Source: a bacterium (GTDB lineage: Bacteria > Bacillota_I > Bacilli_A > RFN20 > DUOZ01). Taken from it: 35,604 nucleotides of DNA. The stretch spans positions 1-35,604 of the forward strand of contig DUOZ01000100.1 of the NCBI GenBank assembly GCA_012838555.1. The letters run 5' to 3'. Both the position numbers and the translations under genes were made by a program. Below the pieces are notes generated by a model. The model saw nothing but the letters and a program-made list of their open reading frames with translations. It searched no databases and was not told where the DNA came from. Positions within the stretch are counted from its first letter, which is position 1. Each line of letters starts with the position of its first letter. Positions 30,278 through 35,604 of this stretch are shown here, in pieces.

Positions 30278-31927
30278 TTGAAAAAAGCATGGTATAAAGA
30301 AGGAGTCGTTTATCAAATTTATCCACGTAGTTTTAAAGACTCTAATAATGATGGTATCGGTGATTTAAAAGGTATCATAGAGAAACTCGATTATTTAAAA
30401 GAATTAGGGATCGATATTATATGGCTATCCCCAATTTATGAATCACCACTAGATGATAATGGTTATGATGTTTCTGATTATCGAGCGATTTTAAAAGATT
30501 TCGGTACCATGGAAGATTTTAAAAAGTTAGTTAAAGAAGTTCATAATCGAGGAATGAGAATTATTTTAGATATGGTTATTAATCATACCTCAAGTGAACA
30601 TAAATTCTTTAAAGAAGCTTTAAGTGATGTTAATAGTAAATATCGAGATTGGTATTTCTTCAAAAAAGGAAAGAAAAACAAATTACCTAATAACTGGACT
30701 TCCTTCTTTGGTGGAAAAGCTTGGACTTATAATAAACAAACTGATGATTATTATCTTCATTTATTCGCACCTTCTCAACCTGATTTAAATTGGGAAAACG
30801 AAGAAGTTAAGAAAGAGTTCAAGGATGTTTTAAAGTTCTGGCTTGATGAAGGGGTTGATGGTTTTAGACTAGATGTAATAAACATTTTATCTAAAAGAGA
30901 AGGTCTACCTAATGGTAAGAAAAGACTTGCTTTAACGGGTAAAGAACATTATGTAAACGGACCTAAAATGCATCAAATCCTTCAAGAATTAAATGAAGAT
31001 GTGTTTAATAAATATGATTGTTTTACGGTCGGTGAAACGGTCTTAATTGATACAAAAGAGGCTTTAAAATACACCGGCGGAGACAAACGAGAACTTGATA
31101 TGCTCTTTAGTTTTGAACATACTTCAGTTGATACCATTAACAATAAATGGTTTATTAGAAAATTTAGACCTTATCATTTAAAAAAAGTTTTAGATAAATA
31201 TCAAGAAGCACTTAATAATAAAGGCTGGAACACCTTATTTTTTGAAAACCACGATCAACCCCGCGTTGTATCTAGATGGGGAGATACAAAAGACTATTAT
31301 AAAGAAAGTGCGAAATTACTAGCGACTATTTTATTCTTCCAACAAGGAACGCCATTCATTTATCAAGGTCAAGAAATCGCGATGACGAATGCTGATTTTA
31401 AAGAACTAGATGAATACAAAGATGTTGAAACTCACAACATCTATAAATTAGGTAGAGAGGTTTTCCATTTCACTCATAAGCGAATGATGAAAAAGATCAA
31501 ATATATGTCTAGAGATAATGCGAGGACACCAATGCAATGGGATGATTCAAAAAACGCTGGTTTTTCTAAAGGAACTCCTTGGATTAGGGTTAATTCAAAT
31601 TATAAAAAGATAAATGTTAAAAATAATATTAAGGATAAAGATTCAGTTTATCATTATTATAAAAAAATCTTTGCTTTAAGAAAGAAATACCCAGTAATTG
31701 TTTATGGTGATTATAAACCATTATTTAAGAAGTCTAGATATTTATATGCTTATGAAAGAACTCTAGATAATAATTCATTAATAGTAATTTCTAATTTCTC
31801 TAAAAAGCAAAGAAAATTCCCAAAACTTAACTTAGATGACTATAAAGTTATTTTACAAAACTATAAGACTTTAGATAATAATTATTTAAAACCATATGAA
31901 GCTAGAGTCTATCTAAAAACTAAGTAA
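30278..31927 (+). CDS. malL: GH13 oligo-1,6-glucosidase / alpha-glucosidase (GH13_31-like)
   Basis: YQIYPRSF, DNGYD, VINHTS, QPDLNW, GFRLDVIN, TVGE, ENHDQPR, SRDNARTPMQW; TTG start follows AAGGAGGT. Confidence 0.88.
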   Translation: MKKAWYKEGVVYQIYPRSFKDSNNDGIGDLKGIIEKLDYLKELGIDIIWLSPIYESPLDDNGYDVSDYRAILKDFGTMEDFKKLVKEVHNRGMRIILDMVINHTSSEHKFFKEALSDVNSKYRDWYFFKKGKKNKLPNNWTSFFGGKAWTYNKQTDDYYLHLFAPSQPDLNWENEEVKKEFKDVLKFWLDEGVDGFRLDVINILSKREGLPNGKKRLALTGKEHYVNGPKMHQILQELNEDVFNKYDCFTVGETVLIDTKEALKYTGGDKRELDMLFSFEHTSVDTINNKWFIRKFRPYHLKKVLDKYQEALNNKGWNTLFFENHDQPRVVSRWGDTKDYYKESAKLLATILFFQQGTPFIYQGQEIAMTNADFKELDEYKDVETHNIYKLGREVFHFTHKRMMKKIKYMSRDNARTPMQWDDSKNAGFSKGTPWIRVNSNYKKINVKNNIKDKDSVYHYYKKIFALRKKYPVIVYGDYKPLFKKSRYLYAYERTLDNNSLIVISNFSKKQRKFPKLNLDDYKVILQNYKTLDNNYLKPYEARVYLKTK

Positions 31928-31955
31928 AAGAAAACTCCAGGAATTCTGGAGTTTT
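31928..31955. terminator. terminator between convergent GH13 and lipoprotein genes, probably bidirectional
   Basis: AAAACTCCAG-GAATT-CTGGAGTTTT perfect 10 bp inverted repeat. Confidence 0.85.
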
Positions 31956-31963
31956 AGTAAAGA

Positions 31964-33100
31964 TCAGTCATGATGATTTTTATGATGTGGAATTTTGTCT
32001 CTTATTTCTTTTACCTTTTCTTTGATTTTTTCTTTAACTTCCTCTTTTATCTTTTTTATTTTTTCATTACGACATTTAAAGAATTCTTGTCCATCAAAGA
32101 AATGATAACGATAGAGTGTTTCTCCAGTTTCTTCATCAGTAATGATAAAGACTTTGATATCAATTACATTACGGTCTTTAATGATTCTAATTTTAATTAA
32201 TTGTTTACCTTCTTCTTCAATCTTTTTGAAACTGTAGTCTTCATAACTTCCATTTTCATATAATCTTAATTTAATTTCTGTTTTAGATTCAACGTTTTTA
32301 ACATTAATATCAGAAATTGATTCGATTTTACCGTCTTTAACAATTCGATATTTAAAGTTCTCTTTATCTTCATTACTCATATGAGAAACTCTTACATAAT
32401 TAAAGCGGTCAATAAATGAAATAAAGCTTGTTTTAGTAAATGTTTCATGAGCGATTCTAACACCTTTGATTTCATAATGTTCTTCCCCGACAATCATTAT
32501 TCCTTCAATAAGTGTAGAGACTTCATCAATTTTATCTCTTATACGGTCTAAATGACGAACTTCTTTAACCTTACTATGATAATTTTCAACGATTTCATCA
32601 ACTGACTCAACTTCATTACCAACTTCTTCTTCATCAGTGATATCCTCTTCAATTTCATCTTCAACATCAATAATTACTTCATTATAATATAGAACATAAC
32701 TTTGAGTTTCTCCTAGTAAACTTTTTGTTGAAATAATCATCATATAATCAAATTCTTCAATATCAGAATTTGAGATATTACTACTTAAGACACCTTCATC
32801 ACTTAATAAACTTTCAAATAGATTTACATAATAATTAATCTTTTCAATTTCTTCTTCACCGACTTCATTCCAAGCTAGATTCATCGCTTTAGATGCATTT
32901 GTCTCAGCTGACATATCAAATTGAGAAAGTAGTGACGCACTAGTTAATGCAGAAAAACCATAAACATCGTCGACATCATTAATTTCTGTTATGTATTCAC
33001 TCTTTTTTTCAGTATCTACATCTGAAGAATTAAGAGTTGAACAACCTCCTAGGATTAAAAGTGATACTAAAATTGATAAAGCAAAATTTTTCTTTTTCAT
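31964..33100 (-). CDS. uncharacterised lipoprotein with an acidic loop and a Lys/His-rich C-terminus
   Basis: MKKKNFALSILVSLLILGGC lipobox; D/E-rich segment; ends KIPHHKNHHD; RBS AAGGAGG. Confidence 0.75.
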   Translation of the reverse strand: MKKKNFALSILVSLLILGGCSTLNSSDVDTEKKSEYITEINDVDDVYGFSALTSASLLSQFDMSAETNASKAMNLAWNEVGEEEIEKINYYVNLFESLLSDEGVLSSNISNSDIEEFDYMMIISTKSLLGETQSYVLYYNEVIIDVEDEIEEDITDEEEVGNEVESVDEIVENYHSKVKEVRHLDRIRDKIDEVSTLIEGIMIVGEEHYEIKGVRIAHETFTKTSFISFIDRFNYVRVSHMSNEDKENFKYRIVKDGKIESISDINVKNVESKTEIKLRLYENGSYEDYSFKKIEEEGKQLIKIRIIKDRNVIDIKVFIITDEETGETLYRYHFFDGQEFFKCRNEKIKKIKEEVKEKIKEKVKEIRDKIPHHKNHHD

Positions 33101-33138
33101 ATCTTTTCCTCCTTACTAGTAAAAACTAGCATACATAT

Positions 33139-33170
33139 ATATAACTCTTTAAGATTTCATTTTGTTGGTA
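33139..33170 (-). promoter_or_regulatory. putative ECF-sigma promoter of the lipoprotein gene
   Basis: TACCAACAAA-N15-GTTATAT, with both boxes and the spacing identical to 34897..34928. Confidence 0.75.
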
Positions 33171-33174
33171 AAAT

Positions 33175-34290
33175 TTATTTATGTTGATGATGTTGTTTTT
33201 TAAAATCATTCTTTTTCGTATCAAATTCACTTTGTAAATCATCTAATTGCTTCTTTAACAAGTCCTTATAATCATCTAATAACACTTTAAGTGCATTAAT
33301 TTCATGCTGATCTTTAGGATCGTTAATTTTAAACTCCCAATCTAAATGATTTTCTAAAATGAAATTATTAAACTTTTGCTTTACTCTATTTAAGAAAACT
33401 TTATTTTTAATTTTAGGTAAATCTTTTAAGATATCTTCGATTTTATCAATTCTTTCATTGATTAAATCCCTAGTTTCATTAAACTCTTTTCGAAACTCTT
33501 TAAATTCATCTTTTAAGGCATCATGATAATTATCGATTTCTTCTTTATTAAAACCATTAATTAACTCATTAAGTTCTTTAACTGAAAGAACTCTAGCTTG
33601 TTCAAAGGTTAAAGTTTGATCTTTATCACATGCTTTAGTGATTAATAAATATCTACCAACACTAACACCTAGTTCTTTAGCATGATTTTTAAAATCATCA
33701 TTATTACTCATTAAAACATTAACACGATTATCTAATAATTGCTCCTGCAAATAAATAGTAATAGCATTTTTTATTAATAAAGAAACTTCATTTTCTTTTA
33801 CCTCATCATCATTAATCGCTGTTATCATTAAAGCATTATCAGTTGTATCTTTATTAATATAACCTACTTCAATAGCTAAATTTACAATTTCTTTAACAGC
33901 ATCTTTAATATCTAAATCAATAAGTTCACATTCAAATAGTAACAACATCGCTTCTTTATTTAATGGACGATAAGAAGTTACTTTATTATCTTTATCAATT
34001 TCTAATTCAATTGATGGATTAATATCAATCGAAACATATGTGTTTAATTCTTCTACCTTAACAATACTTGATGGTGTAAAGGCATCTTTAAAAAGTGGAA
34101 TAATTGTAAATAAAACAAGTGCCGCAGCAAAAACTAAACTAATAAATGAACGCTTCATTTTCTTTTTAACTATATAATCATTACTAGGAGAATAGTAACT
34201 ATCAAGCTTTGACATTAATTCATCTTTAAGATTAGGAACGATAGAATCTGCTTCTATTTTTAATCTTTTTTCAATTTCTTTAATCTTCAT
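33175..34290 (-). CDS. membrane anti-sigma factor with an RsgI-type extracellular (SEA-like) domain and a coiled-coil C-terminus
   Basis: about 48 aa cytoplasmic N-terminus, one TM, then YVSIDINPSIELEIDKDNKV..LNKEA..AIEVGYI..KELGVSVGRY; overlaps the 3' end of the sigma gene. Confidence 0.8.
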   Translation of the reverse strand: MKIKEIEKRLKIEADSIVPNLKDELMSKLDSYYSPSNDYIVKKKMKRSFISLVFAAALVLFTIIPLFKDAFTPSSIVKVEELNTYVSIDINPSIELEIDKDNKVTSYRPLNKEAMLLLFECELIDLDIKDAVKEIVNLAIEVGYINKDTTDNALMITAINDDEVKENEVSLLIKNAITIYLQEQLLDNRVNVLMSNNDDFKNHAKELGVSVGRYLLITKACDKDQTLTFEQARVLSVKELNELINGFNKEEIDNYHDALKDEFKEFRKEFNETRDLINERIDKIEDILKDLPKIKNKVFLNRVKQKFNNFILENHLDWEFKINDPKDQHEINALKVLLDDYKDLLKKQLDDLQSEFDTKKNDFKKQHHQHK

Positions 34291-34825
34291 TACTAATTCC
34301 CCCTTTCTCTAAATGTTCTTTTAAGGTATTCAAAGCTTTTAAATATTTCCAAGTAATTGTACTTATAGGTTTATTTAAGATTTTAGCAACTTCTTTACGC
34401 TTCATATTTAAGAATAAACACATCGCTAGAATCTGATATTCATCATCAGGTAAAACTTTTTTGGCTAGATCGATGGTCGGAGTATCAATATCACGTTCAT
34501 TTTCTTGGACTCCAAATAAATACTCATTTTCACTAACATCAATTGATTGTTCTTTCTTTCTAACTCTTAATTCATCTAGTGAAAGATTTCTTACTATTGT
34601 TGTAATCCATGCTCCTGGATTTGAATTATCTTGATATGATGATATTTTTTGCATGATTTTAAGATAGGTATTTTGCATAACATCTTTAGCTAATTCTCTA
34701 TTTTTTAAAATCGATAAAGCATAATGAAACACGTATTTATGAGTCATATCATAAATAGGTCCAAATGCTTCTTTTTTACCGTACTTAAACTCTAACATCC
34801 ATTTATTTAATGCTTGGTGATCCAT
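34280..34825 (-). CDS. ECF (group 4) RNA polymerase sigma factor
   Basis: only region 2 (AKDVMQNTYLKI..AWITTIVRNLSLDELR) and region 4 (KEVAKILNKPISTI..ALNTLK), about 181 aa; ATG 34825 follows GGAAGGT. Confidence 0.9.
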   Translation of the reverse strand: MDHQALNKWMLEFKYGKKEAFGPIYDMTHKYVFHYALSILKNRELAKDVMQNTYLKIMQKISSYQDNSNPGAWITTIVRNLSLDELRVRKKEQSIDVSENEYLFGVQENERDIDTPTIDLAKKVLPDDEYQILAMCLFLNMKRKEVAKILNKPISTITWKYLKALNTLKEHLEKGGISNED

Positions 34826-34851
34826 ACACTTACCTTCCATCTAATAGTCAA

Positions 34852-34860
34852 ATTATACCA
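34852..34860 (-). promoter_or_regulatory. extended -10 SigA-type promoter of the ECF sigma gene
   Basis: TGGTATAAT, with TATAAT ending 26 nt before the start codon. Confidence 0.55.
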
Positions 34861-34896
34861 CACTTTTTCAAAAGTAAATGTAGTCATCACTCAATA

Positions 34897-34928
34897 ATAT
34901 AACGATGAAGTGATATTGTTTGTTGGTA
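34897..34928 (-). promoter_or_regulatory. putative autoregulatory ECF-sigma promoter
   Basis: TACCAACAAA-CAATATCACTTCATC-GTTATAT, which contains the general ECF pattern AAC-N17-CGT. Confidence 0.75.
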
Positions 34929-34966
34929 GGAAAATCTTTTAATGTTATAATTTAGAGGGTGAAAAT

Positions 34967-35604
34967 ATGGACATACTTAATTTAATCAAAGATGGAGACA
35001 TCATTATTACTCCCTATGAAGTAAAAAAGGAAATATTAAAAGAAATATCAAAAAGGAAATTATTCCATCACTTTCGTTTTTTCACTAAAAAGGAAATTAT
35101 TGAAAAGAGTTTATTTATTTATGATTTAAATACAATTGCTTATTTAATGGAAAATTATGAGTTTAGAGTTGAAAATGCCATTATGTATTTAAATAATTTA
35201 TATTATATAGATAATAAAACTTATAATATTGAAAAATTAGACTTTTTAGTCAAAATAAAAAAAGAATTAACTAGAATAAAGTTACTTAAAGAAGATAACT
35301 TATTTAAACAGTTAGTACTTAACAAAAGAGTGATTGTTGTTGGTTACCAAATTATTGACAATTTATTTAATAGAGCATTAAATGAACTTAATAAAGTCTC
35401 AGAAGTTCAAATAATTGAGTTTGAAAATAAAGAAATCCCTAAATTAGATGTCTTCCATTATCATCATTTAAATGATGAAGTTAACGGTGTTGCAGTTAAA
35501 ATTTGTGAGTTAATCGAACAAGGAATTAATATTAACAAGATAAAGCTTTCTAATGTAAATAATTCTTATTATTACACTTTAAATAAAATTTTTAATTTAT
35601 ATAA
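34967..35604 (+). CDS. N-terminal part of a large protein, possibly an AddB-like/PD-(D/E)XK nuclease family member; runs off the right edge
   Basis: Absent from the ORF track; open frame from ATG 34967 (RBS GAGGGTG, TGTTATAAT at 34943-34951): MDILNLIKDGDIIITPY..DEVNGVAVKICELIEQGININKIKL resembles the AddB E-V-x3-A-x2-I-x2-L...G...I pattern. The nuclease domain itself is not in the window. Confidence 0.5.
   Translation, partial: MDILNLIKDGDIIITPYEVKKEILKEISKRKLFHHFRFFTKKEIIEKSLFIYDLNTIAYLMENYEFRVENAIMYLNNLYYIDNKTYNIEKLDFLVKIKKELTRIKLLKEDNLFKQLVLNKRVIVVGYQIIDNLFNRALNELNKVSEVQIIEFENKEIPKLDVFHYHHLNDEVNGVAVKICELIEQGININKIKLSNVNNSYYYTLNKIFNLY

Follow-up and report, generated by a model that had tools for sequence, protein, structure and literature searches.

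An extracytoplasmic function sigma factor encoded with an RsgI-like, putatively self-cleaving anti-sigma protein in a low-GC member of the Bacilli

In the texts searched, self-cleavage of the SEAL domain has so far been tied to SigI/RsgI signaling. A pair of overlapping genes from a bacterium of the lineage Bacillota_I; Bacilli_A; RFN20; DUOZ01 raises the question of whether this switch can also serve a sigma factor of another family. The pair lies on contig DUOZ01000100.1 of assembly GCA_012838555.1, in a stretch of 35,604 nucleotides (nt) that was analyzed as a whole and is called the window here. A preliminary description of this DNA had proposed a hybrid module that joins the RsgI autoproteolysis switch to a classical extracytoplasmic function (ECF) sigma factor. 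The pair itself is real. According to the list of open reading frames (ORFs), three minus-strand genes follow one another in tandem and encode the sigma factor, a single-pass membrane protein that would be its anti-sigma factor, and a lipoprotein. These genes and the parts of the anti-sigma protein (with its residue numbers) are as follows.

34280..34840, minus strand: ECF-type sigma gene, a 186-amino-acid (aa) ORF; the likely ATG at 34825 gives 181 aa
33175..34290, minus strand: single-pass anti-sigma gene, a 371-aa ORF with an 11-nt overlap with the sigma ORF
31964..33100, minus strand: lipoprotein gene, third of the unit, a 378-aa ORF with the lipobox ...LGGC
34177..34290, minus strand: predicted two-helix sigma-binding head, residues 1-38 (model, motif, and predicted contacts)
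34093..34146, minus strand: transmembrane helix, residues 49-66 (hydrophobicity scan; helix 48-66 in the model)
33559..34041, minus strand: SEAL (RsgI_M) autoproteolytic domain, residues 84-244 (PF23750, model, Foldseek, and PDB sequence matches)
34015..34020, minus strand: Asn91-Pro92, the predicted self-cleavage site, in a hairpin between strands 84-89 and 93-98
33181..33546, minus strand: charged helical C-terminal region, residues 249-370, a candidate sensor or partner-binding part

The ATG at 34825 is the likelier start of the sigma gene because GGAAGG lies 5′ of it, and this start agrees with the end coordinate given in the preliminary description.

Sigma factor, cleavage domain, and cytoplasmic head

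The sigma factor passed the ECF superfamily model TIGR02937 with 69.3 bits against a cut-off of 42.9, the match extending over sigma residues 26-177 and model positions 3-165 of 165, and it also matched Sigma70_r2 in Pfam (8e-14). When the SigI model TIGR02895 was searched against the whole 1.63-Mb genome, five weak matches were found, none of them over the cut-off and none at the sigma gene (E ≤ 0.001). Similarly, no SigI model was among the best 25 of the 88 NCBIfam matches of the sigma factor. Five sigma factors that adjoin RsgI_N proteins served as positive controls. These are 243-264 aa long, pass SigI equivalog or subfamily models, and score 183-238 bits on TIGR02895, and a SigI control can also attain the TIGR02937 cut-off (44.5 bits). 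A phmmer search with the window sigma recovered none of the five at E ≤ 10. Because TIGR02937 was passed and TIGR02895 gave no match at a gene where true SigI controls would reach 183-238 bits, the sigma factor is, as judged by these profiles, an ECF sigma factor and not SigI. The named ECF equivalog and subfamily models of NCBIfam (SigV, SigW, SigM, SigX, SigY, and SigZ) all left it far under their cut-offs; for example, it scored 65 bits against cut-offs of 190, 209, and 194 for SigV, SigW, and SigY, respectively.

The partner protein resembles RsgI on the outside of the membrane. Pfam assigns residues 84-218 to RsgI_M (PF23750; E = 5.2e-28, 98.7 bits against a cut-off of 25.3), and in a search of the genome this was the sole RsgI_M protein (102.1 bits). 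A PDB sequence search matched the periplasmic domains of RsgI2, RsgI1, RsgI6, RsgI9, and Bacillus subtilis RsgI (E from 1.6e-12 to 3e-5), and in the alignment Pro92 falls on residue 1 of chains 8heq_B and 8hdj_B, the C-terminal product of RsgI2 cleavage. The motif YVSIDINPSIEL occupies residues 85-96 and LGVSVGR residues 207-213. An AlphaFold2 model of the protein, built on 75 family sequences, reached a mean predicted local distance difference test score (pLDDT) of 79.5, with 88-97 in the SEAL domain, where strands 84-89 and 93-98 flank N91-P92-S93. When this model was compared with the PDB using Foldseek, ranks 1 to 10 were all RsgI ectodomains (entries 8hdj, 8t9n, 8heq, 8her, 8hep, and 8u9o; TMt 0.69-0.80, E from 1e-8 to 3e-5), and the next match was at an E value of 0.02. 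Conservation among the 75 family sequences is at least 90% at D89, N91, P92, S93, N111, G143, and Y144. For the RsgI proteins of Clostridium thermocellum, cleavage between the conserved Asn and Pro has been demonstrated (PMC10328401), and for B. subtilis RsgI, cleavage is described as strain driven, occurring in a three-residue hairpin with the ectodomain retained (PMC10556640).

The part inside the membrane is different. About 48 aa precede the transmembrane helix, modeled as helices 3-17 and 22-32 with pLDDT values of 84-89. RsgI_N (PF12791) was found neither on the whole anti-sigma protein at E ≤ 1 nor on the head at E ≤ 10; in five control RsgI proteins of the same survey it scored 34-47 bits. 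Instead, the head carries a motif consisting of an acidic residue, I/L-E-K/R-x-L, about seven residues, and then V/T-P-D/N-hydrophobic, which recurs in 61 anti-sigma proteins and in alignment A5, from Izemoplasma-like Bacilli to Clostridia. When 58 family heads were compared with Pfam at E ≤ 10, no zf-HC2, DUF4179, or RsgI_N was among the 25 commonest of the 59 families matched, in a scan for which such short domains are hard for hidden Markov models (HMMs) to detect. The weak matches included Sigma_reg_N in 1 of the 58 heads (E = 0.057) and DUF3379 in 5 (best E = 0.0061).

The complex between the sigma factor (alignment A4) and anti-sigma residues 1-48 (alignment A5) was also predicted. The interface score ipSAE was 0.66 (0.66, 0.66, and 0.67 in the individual runs) compared to 0.00 for the best of three controls. 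Of 80 solved complexes, 58 reach the mark for this score, as do 2 of 110 mismatched pairs; these counts are only approximate here because custom alignments were used. The runs share at least 91% of contacts, and the pLDDT of the partners is at least 77. The predicted contacts involve anti-sigma residues 1-38 on one side and sigma residues 18-67 (region 2) and 118-178 (region 4) on the other, and the model thus supports binding of the head to both sigma regions.

Most of what the preliminary description had said about the two proteins was borne out by these results. It had called the sigma factor a compact ECF protein outside the SigI family. TIGR02937 was passed over its full length, with the region-4 Pfam matches staying sub-threshold, and TIGR02895 was without a match at the gene. 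The downstream gene was said to overlap the sigma gene and to encode one transmembrane helix and an RsgI-type ectodomain with Asn91-Pro92 at nt 34020-34015 and LGVSVGR; the overlap is 11 nt, the helix spans residues 48-66 in the model, these positions are correct, and the expected SEA-like fold was recovered among RsgI ectodomains. A short helical head of about 48 aa in place of the usual RsgI_N agrees with the two modeled helices and the empty RsgI_N scan, and the complex prediction that had been proposed favored binding.

Distribution of the pairing and relation to known systems

How common is this combination? RsgI_M was present in 23 of 61 genomes (60 of the same order plus the window's own). 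Of 23 SEAL ORFs recovered from the loci of relatives, 14 directly follow a sigma-like ORF of ECF size; the other 9 are of the lipoprotein type, without a sigma gene. When one genome per species was scanned, the pattern matched 533 times; confirmation left 488 matches, and the best 80 of them were retained. Among these best 80 of 488, the closest loci are labeled Acholeplasmataceae, Izemoplasma, Mariniplasma, and Mollicutes, and many others are from Clostridia, including Christensenellaceae, Oscillospiraceae, and Lachnospiraceae. The 104 loci in all yielded 121 SEAL ORFs, in 85 of which 54 or more residues precede the SEAL domain. The ORF upstream was matched by the window sigma (phmmer, E < 1e-10) in 61 of these 85 long-headed cases, and in 53 of the 61 related pairs the sigma and anti-sigma genes overlap or abut. 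Fewer than 55 residues precede the domain in 36 of the 121, and a lipobox-like motif was found in 25 of these 36.

A survey covered 75 nonredundant pairs from other genomes, with upstream ORFs of 140-300 aa. The upstream ORF matched TIGR02937 in 73 pairs and ECF subfamily models such as TIGR02985 or TIGR02983 in 68, a proportion that overstates ECF pairing among all SEAL proteins because the kept loci are the best matches to the window protein. The remaining upstream ORFs were five SigI and two that are not sigma factors (one SEAL lipoprotein and one GNAT). On the anti-sigma side, RsgI_M was present in 75 of 75, PepSY in 27, and RsgI_N in 5. RsgI_N was confined to the five partners of SigI genes, that is, the type of head co-varies with the type of sigma factor. 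The hybrid of an RsgI switch and a classical ECF sigma factor is supported, but it is not singular, as the same architecture occurs in the 68 pairs. From these comparisons, the pair appears to belong to a large unnamed ECF/SEAL family in low-GC Bacilli and Clostridia.

A described ECF-SEAL pairing was not found in the literature searched, although the supplements of PMC10556640 and PMC7826278 may list one. "ECF" is absent from the main text of PMC10556640, and RsgI and PepSY are absent from that of PMC7826278, an ECF classification paper. The pairing is widespread, uncharacterized, and apparently undescribed.

The closest known systems are the SigI-RsgI pairs of B. subtilis and Clostridium (Acetivibrio) thermocellum (SigI/RsgI1-9). 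They share with the window pair the single-pass anti-sigma protein, the juxtamembrane SEAL domain with its Asn-Pro hairpin and matching fold, the variable part C-terminal to SEAL, and a protease of the RseP/RasP type, which is present in the window genome. Unlike in these systems, the window sigma is a canonical ECF, the head comprises two helices in about 35 aa and has no RsgI_N, and the protein has no disordered linker, carbohydrate-binding module, or glycan-binding module, its C terminus being charged and helical. The promoter motif described below is also unlike the −10 element CGWA given for sigI promoters (PMC4711584). Because the two defining features, RsgI_N and SigI, fail, the pair should not be filed in the RsgI/SigI family. 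The system is RsgI-like outside and classical-ECF-like inside.

Nearer relatives are the SEAL-PepSY proteins noted by Brogan et al. 2023 (PMC10556640). By head motif and partner sigma they belong to the same family as the window protein, and in our survey 27 of the 75 proteins have PepSY after SEAL and lack RsgI_N. Their heads are short, and the gene immediately upstream encodes an ECF sigma factor (e.g., L078 and L043); the window protein differs from them in having a helical tail in place of PepSY. One group of SEAL-PepSY anti-sigma proteins, mostly labeled Lachnospiraceae, occurs with sigma factors of 185-192 aa that are too divergent for phmmer with the window sigma (loci L043, L062, L064, L067, L070, L071, L082, L091, L097, L104, L108, and L112). 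The one tested from this group, the L043 sigma, passes the ECF superfamily model.

Classical ECF sigma factors are released by regulated intramembrane proteolysis in systems such as RpoE-RseA-DegS-RseP of Escherichia coli and SigW-RsiW-PrsW-RasP and SigV-RsiV of B. subtilis. The window system has in common with these the two-domain sigma factor, a probably cotranscribed single-pass anti-sigma protein, a candidate autoregulatory promoter of the AAC...CGT type, an envelope serine protease in the candidate regulon, and a site-2 protease. In contrast to them, the site-1 cut would be made by the anti-sigma protein itself, and the head is much shorter than the four-helix class I anti-sigma domain. 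Class II (CnrY/NepR-like) anti-sigma domains are sigma-binding segments of about 35-45 residues with two helices that touch both sigma regions. The window head is likewise short, has two helices, and has predicted contacts with both regions; no sequence relation to the CnrY/NepR-like domains was found.

Promoter motif, lipoprotein, and possible transcription unit

Comparison of the sequences upstream of related sigma genes yielded a motif, ACCAACAAA-N15-GTTATAT, that has exactly three perfect matches in the 1.63-Mb genome on both strands, along with 1 one-mismatch and 23 two-mismatch sites. All three perfect copies sit 16-56 nt before start codons. They are given here together with the other signals around the three genes.

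34897..34927, minus strand: P_sig, ECF-type promoter candidate with the motif, 56 nt to the ATG at 34840 of the sigma gene
33139..33169, minus strand: P_lipo, ECF-type promoter candidate with the motif, 38 nt to the lipoprotein start codon
Contig C91:12385, minus strand: third copy of the motif, 16 nt to the start of a 276-aa ORF (L116:1012-1839)
34852..34860, minus strand: TGgTATAAT, an extended −10-like element read from the sequence, possible housekeeping promoter
31931..31955, minus strand: terminator-like hairpin and T-run of the intrinsic type, directly 3′ of the lipoprotein gene

The −10 part of P_sig reads (C)GTTATAT, and the motif may be set against the AAC-type −35 and CGT-type −10 of autoregulated ECF promoters. 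In 20 genomes simulated with a Markov-1 model, a looser pattern matched 0.65 times on average, compared to four times in the real genome; the fourth of these matches lies within a coding region and has a different −10. The motif or its CCAATAAA variant also precedes the orthologous sigma genes in L007, L008/L065, L021, L025, L033, and L069, and in L069 a further copy stands before the adjacent SEAL lipoprotein gene. The 276-aa ORF behind the third copy encodes a lipoprotein-type signal sequence and Trypsin_2 (1.8e-21), and this gene for a lipoprotein-anchored, trypsin-like protease is likely the third target of the sigma factor. The element at 34852-34860 was not listed by the consensus scan, which demands a −35 hexamer. 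As a separate observation, the only one-mismatch copy of the motif (contig C121:554, minus strand) is followed after 21 nt by an ORF that is at least 110 aa long and, by eye, looks glycosyltransferase-like at its start.

The lipoprotein belongs to no Pfam or NCBIfam family, and the Atlas holds only unnamed clusters for it. Its family has several invariant aromatic and glycine positions (alignment A6). The homologue P0039 is 54% identical to the lipoprotein and the homologue P0002 is 45% identical to the anti-sigma protein; both are reported from a 6015-nt contig of the same source, which suggests a conserved gene neighborhood. An HMM made from alignment A6 found the family adjoining SEAL proteins in seven other loci (L034:2843-3844, L008:2565-3407, L065:4284-5183, L032:1364-2479, L050:564-1646, L102:1855-2955, and L109:1834-2925), which amount to six independent cases because L008 and L065 are identical in sequence. 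The order sigma, anti-sigma, lipoprotein recurs in L034 and L008/L065, and in L032, L050, L102, and L109 the family adjoins SEAL lipoproteins. In 13 further loci (L033, L035-L039, L042, L044, L045, L051, L069, L088, and L096), the ECF/SEAL pair is accompanied by a second SEAL ORF with a short, mostly lipoprotein-type N terminus. By its motif, the lipoprotein is a putative regulon member, and it is a candidate partner of the ectodomain.

The lipoprotein was modeled by AlphaFold with low confidence (mean pLDDT 58.3); the model shows two helices followed by a beta-meander, in which pLDDT values are about 70-80. Foldseek found no match for it in the PDB at E ≤ 0.001. The best VIA-align rows, 7vcf_I (Z 8.7, root mean square deviation [rmsd] 6.0, 190 aligned) and OspA 6kk9_O (Z 6.6, rmsd 4.3, 136 aligned), are of a generic beta-barrel kind in a range common for this tool, and no fold was assigned.

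The hairpin at 31955-31931 is the sole terminator-like site within 31800-35100. RNA-library contigs from three studies cover all three genes, the anti-sigma gene in parts only. Two of them, 31976-33080 and 31974-33107, span nearly the entire lipoprotein gene, another (34258-34821) covers the sigma gene, and one (34156-34403) spans the sigma/anti-sigma junction, although carry-over of DNA in the RNA libraries may be the source of such contigs. Positions 33116-33177, between the anti-sigma stop and the lipoprotein start, are covered by no contig of the four RNA runs. A separate lipoprotein transcript would agree with this gap but is not proved by it, and the loose ends at 33114/33115 look chimeric. 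A low-depth contig (run X16, record 5) joins 31944 to 33094 through 30 foreign letters and so bypasses the lipoprotein gene; with only 22 fitting letters on each side, it may be chimeric or come from another organism.

The window's stretch is present in runs of 14 studies, with labels of anaerobic digester, biogas fermenter, bioreactor, or plain metagenome. The unit is flanked by a plus-strand ORF of 549 aa at 30278-31927, which on inspection by eye looks like a family-13 alpha-glucosidase, and by a 3′-open plus-strand ORF at 34967-35602 without a Pfam match at E ≤ 0.001. Short His-rich tails end both the anti-sigma protein (encoded at 33175-33195) and the lipoprotein (encoded at 31964-31990); they are not in the closest homologues, P0002 and P0039.

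Proposed mechanism, alternatives, and significance

We consider it probable that the locus encodes an autoregulated ECF envelope-stress switch in which self-cleavage of the SEAL domain takes the place of the site-1 step. At rest, the two-helix head (residues 1-38) is predicted to clamp sigma regions 2 and 4 and to hold the sigma factor at the membrane. By analogy with RsgI proteins, the SEAL domain would cleave itself between Asn91 and Pro92 outside the membrane, and the two pieces would stay joined through a shared beta-sheet. A signal acting on the helical C-terminal part, possibly by way of the co-encoded lipoprotein, might then dislodge the cleaved ectodomain, leaving a stub that could become a substrate of an RseP/RasP-type site-2 protease and so release the sigma factor. 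A Peptidase_M50 gene of this type (420 aa, 193 bits) is present in the genome. The free sigma factor would transcribe from the ACCAACAAA-N15-GTTATAT promoters of its own operon, the adjacent lipoprotein gene, and the gene for the trypsin-like lipoprotein protease. To judge from where the motif occurs, this output may amount to an envelope or surface-protein stress regulon. The best matches are Acholeplasma/Izemoplasma-like, and force sensing would be odd in a wall-less host. Such a host was rejected because the genome has peptidoglycan enzymes, namely, four Transpeptidase matches and an FtsW/RodA gene, and the host thus has a cell wall.

The part of the protein on which a signal would act is its C-terminal region. 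Helices were modeled at residues 249-288, 293-313, and 328-370 with pLDDT values of about 57-82, and K, R, D, and E make up 43% of residues 245-371. The preliminary description had seen here a charged coiled coil in place of the usual sensor. Its charged and helical nature was confirmed, the latter by a model of moderate confidence only, but as a sensor it has homologues in just a few close relatives, the region being common only to P0002-P0006.

Besides the selection of loci behind the 68 of 75 pairs, several points weigh against the switch as proposed. For the sigma factor, both Pfam matches to region 4 are below threshold (18.5 against 25.7 bits, E = 0.0016; 15.7 against 24.1 bits, E = 0.011). 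The ipSAE value is a model confidence, and the pass of the complex may partly reflect likeness to solved ECF/anti-sigma complexes. An HMM from four sequences of the C-terminal helical region had no match in the other loci at E ≤ 1, and therefore this region could not be tied specifically to the lipoprotein family. Blocking RsgI cleavage dampened signaling in C. thermocellum but not in B. subtilis (PMC10556640), and self-cleavage therefore need not be the regulated step. As for the regulon, the motif is the whole basis of the assignment. Under the strict pattern, the relatives G005 and G060 have the site upstream of the sigma gene only, and G061, which has a longer spacer, has none. Moreover, a sigma-70-like promoter on the opposite strand (TTGGTA-17-TATAAT with TG, 34923-34951, plus strand) serves the divergent gene at 34967 and overlaps P_sig in its −35 portion, and mutual interference between these promoters is possible.

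In a different reading, the sigma/anti-sigma pair is genuine but the SEAL domain is a mere structural stalk, and the sigma factor would be released either by a ligand-induced conformational change or by a different protease, for example, the co-regulated trypsin-like lipoprotein. Known RsgI proteins cleave themselves constitutively, so the cut as such is not the signal (PMC10556640, PMC10328401); the Asn-Pro is missing from one C. thermocellum RsgI (PMC10328401); and the trypsin-like protease gene has the same promoter motif. However, the window protein retains the complete hairpin D-x-N-P-S-I-E, its conservation of at least 90% in the 75 members argues for selection on cleavage, and the SEAL fold is modeled at high pLDDT (88-97). 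We regard a stalk as unlikely. Less probable still is that the SEAL protein is no anti-sigma factor at all but only a cotranscribed envelope protein, like the SEAL lipoproteins encoded nearby, with the sigma factor controlled in some other way. This would account for the failure to detect a Pfam anti-sigma domain in the 58 family heads and would fit the 36 of 121 SEAL ORFs that are short-headed, 25 of which cannot bind a cytoplasmic sigma factor because they carry a lipobox-like motif. It is at odds with the conservation of the head motif from Izemoplasma-like Bacilli to Clostridia, with genes that overlap or abut in 53 of 61 pairs, with a complex prediction that passes while its controls stay at 0.00, and with the exact co-variation in the controls, in which RsgI_N goes with SigI in five of five and the short head goes with ECF.

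That the locus holds an ordinary but divergent SigI/RsgI pair is the most improbable of the explanations weighed here, and we give it hardly any credence. The SEAL domain is common to RsgI, and SigI can attain the TIGR02937 cut-off. Against this, a sigma factor of 181-186 aa without a TIGR02895 match stands apart from SigI controls of 243-264 aa at 183-238 bits, the anti-sigma protein lacks the RsgI_N that the controls have, and phmmer recovered none of the five SigI controls.

A more far-reaching form of the self-cleaving switch is tentative, and we would not bet on it. It holds that the pair represents a large unrecognized ECF class with its own two-helix mini anti-sigma domain, in which self-cleavage replaces the site-1 protease and a membrane-anchored partner forms a tether or folding sensor with the ectodomain. 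The partner would be the unnamed beta-rich lipoprotein (here and in six other distinct loci) or a second SEAL lipoprotein (13 loci). Disruption of the tether would free the sigma factor, and a feedback loop might follow in which both the partner and an HtrA-like protease are induced.

The system is compact, comprising a 181-aa sigma factor, a 48-aa inhibitor head, a 31-nt promoter, and three candidate target genes in a 1.6-Mb genome, and this makes its parts attractive as orthogonal sigma/anti-sigma components for synthetic biology. If the proposed switch is right, many proteins described as "hypothetical" or "PepSY domain" proteins, without an anti-sigma domain, would be anti-sigma factors with a tiny sigma-binding head. 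SEAL would then be a general bacterial module that connects an outside event to intramembrane proteolysis rather than the specialty of one sigma family.

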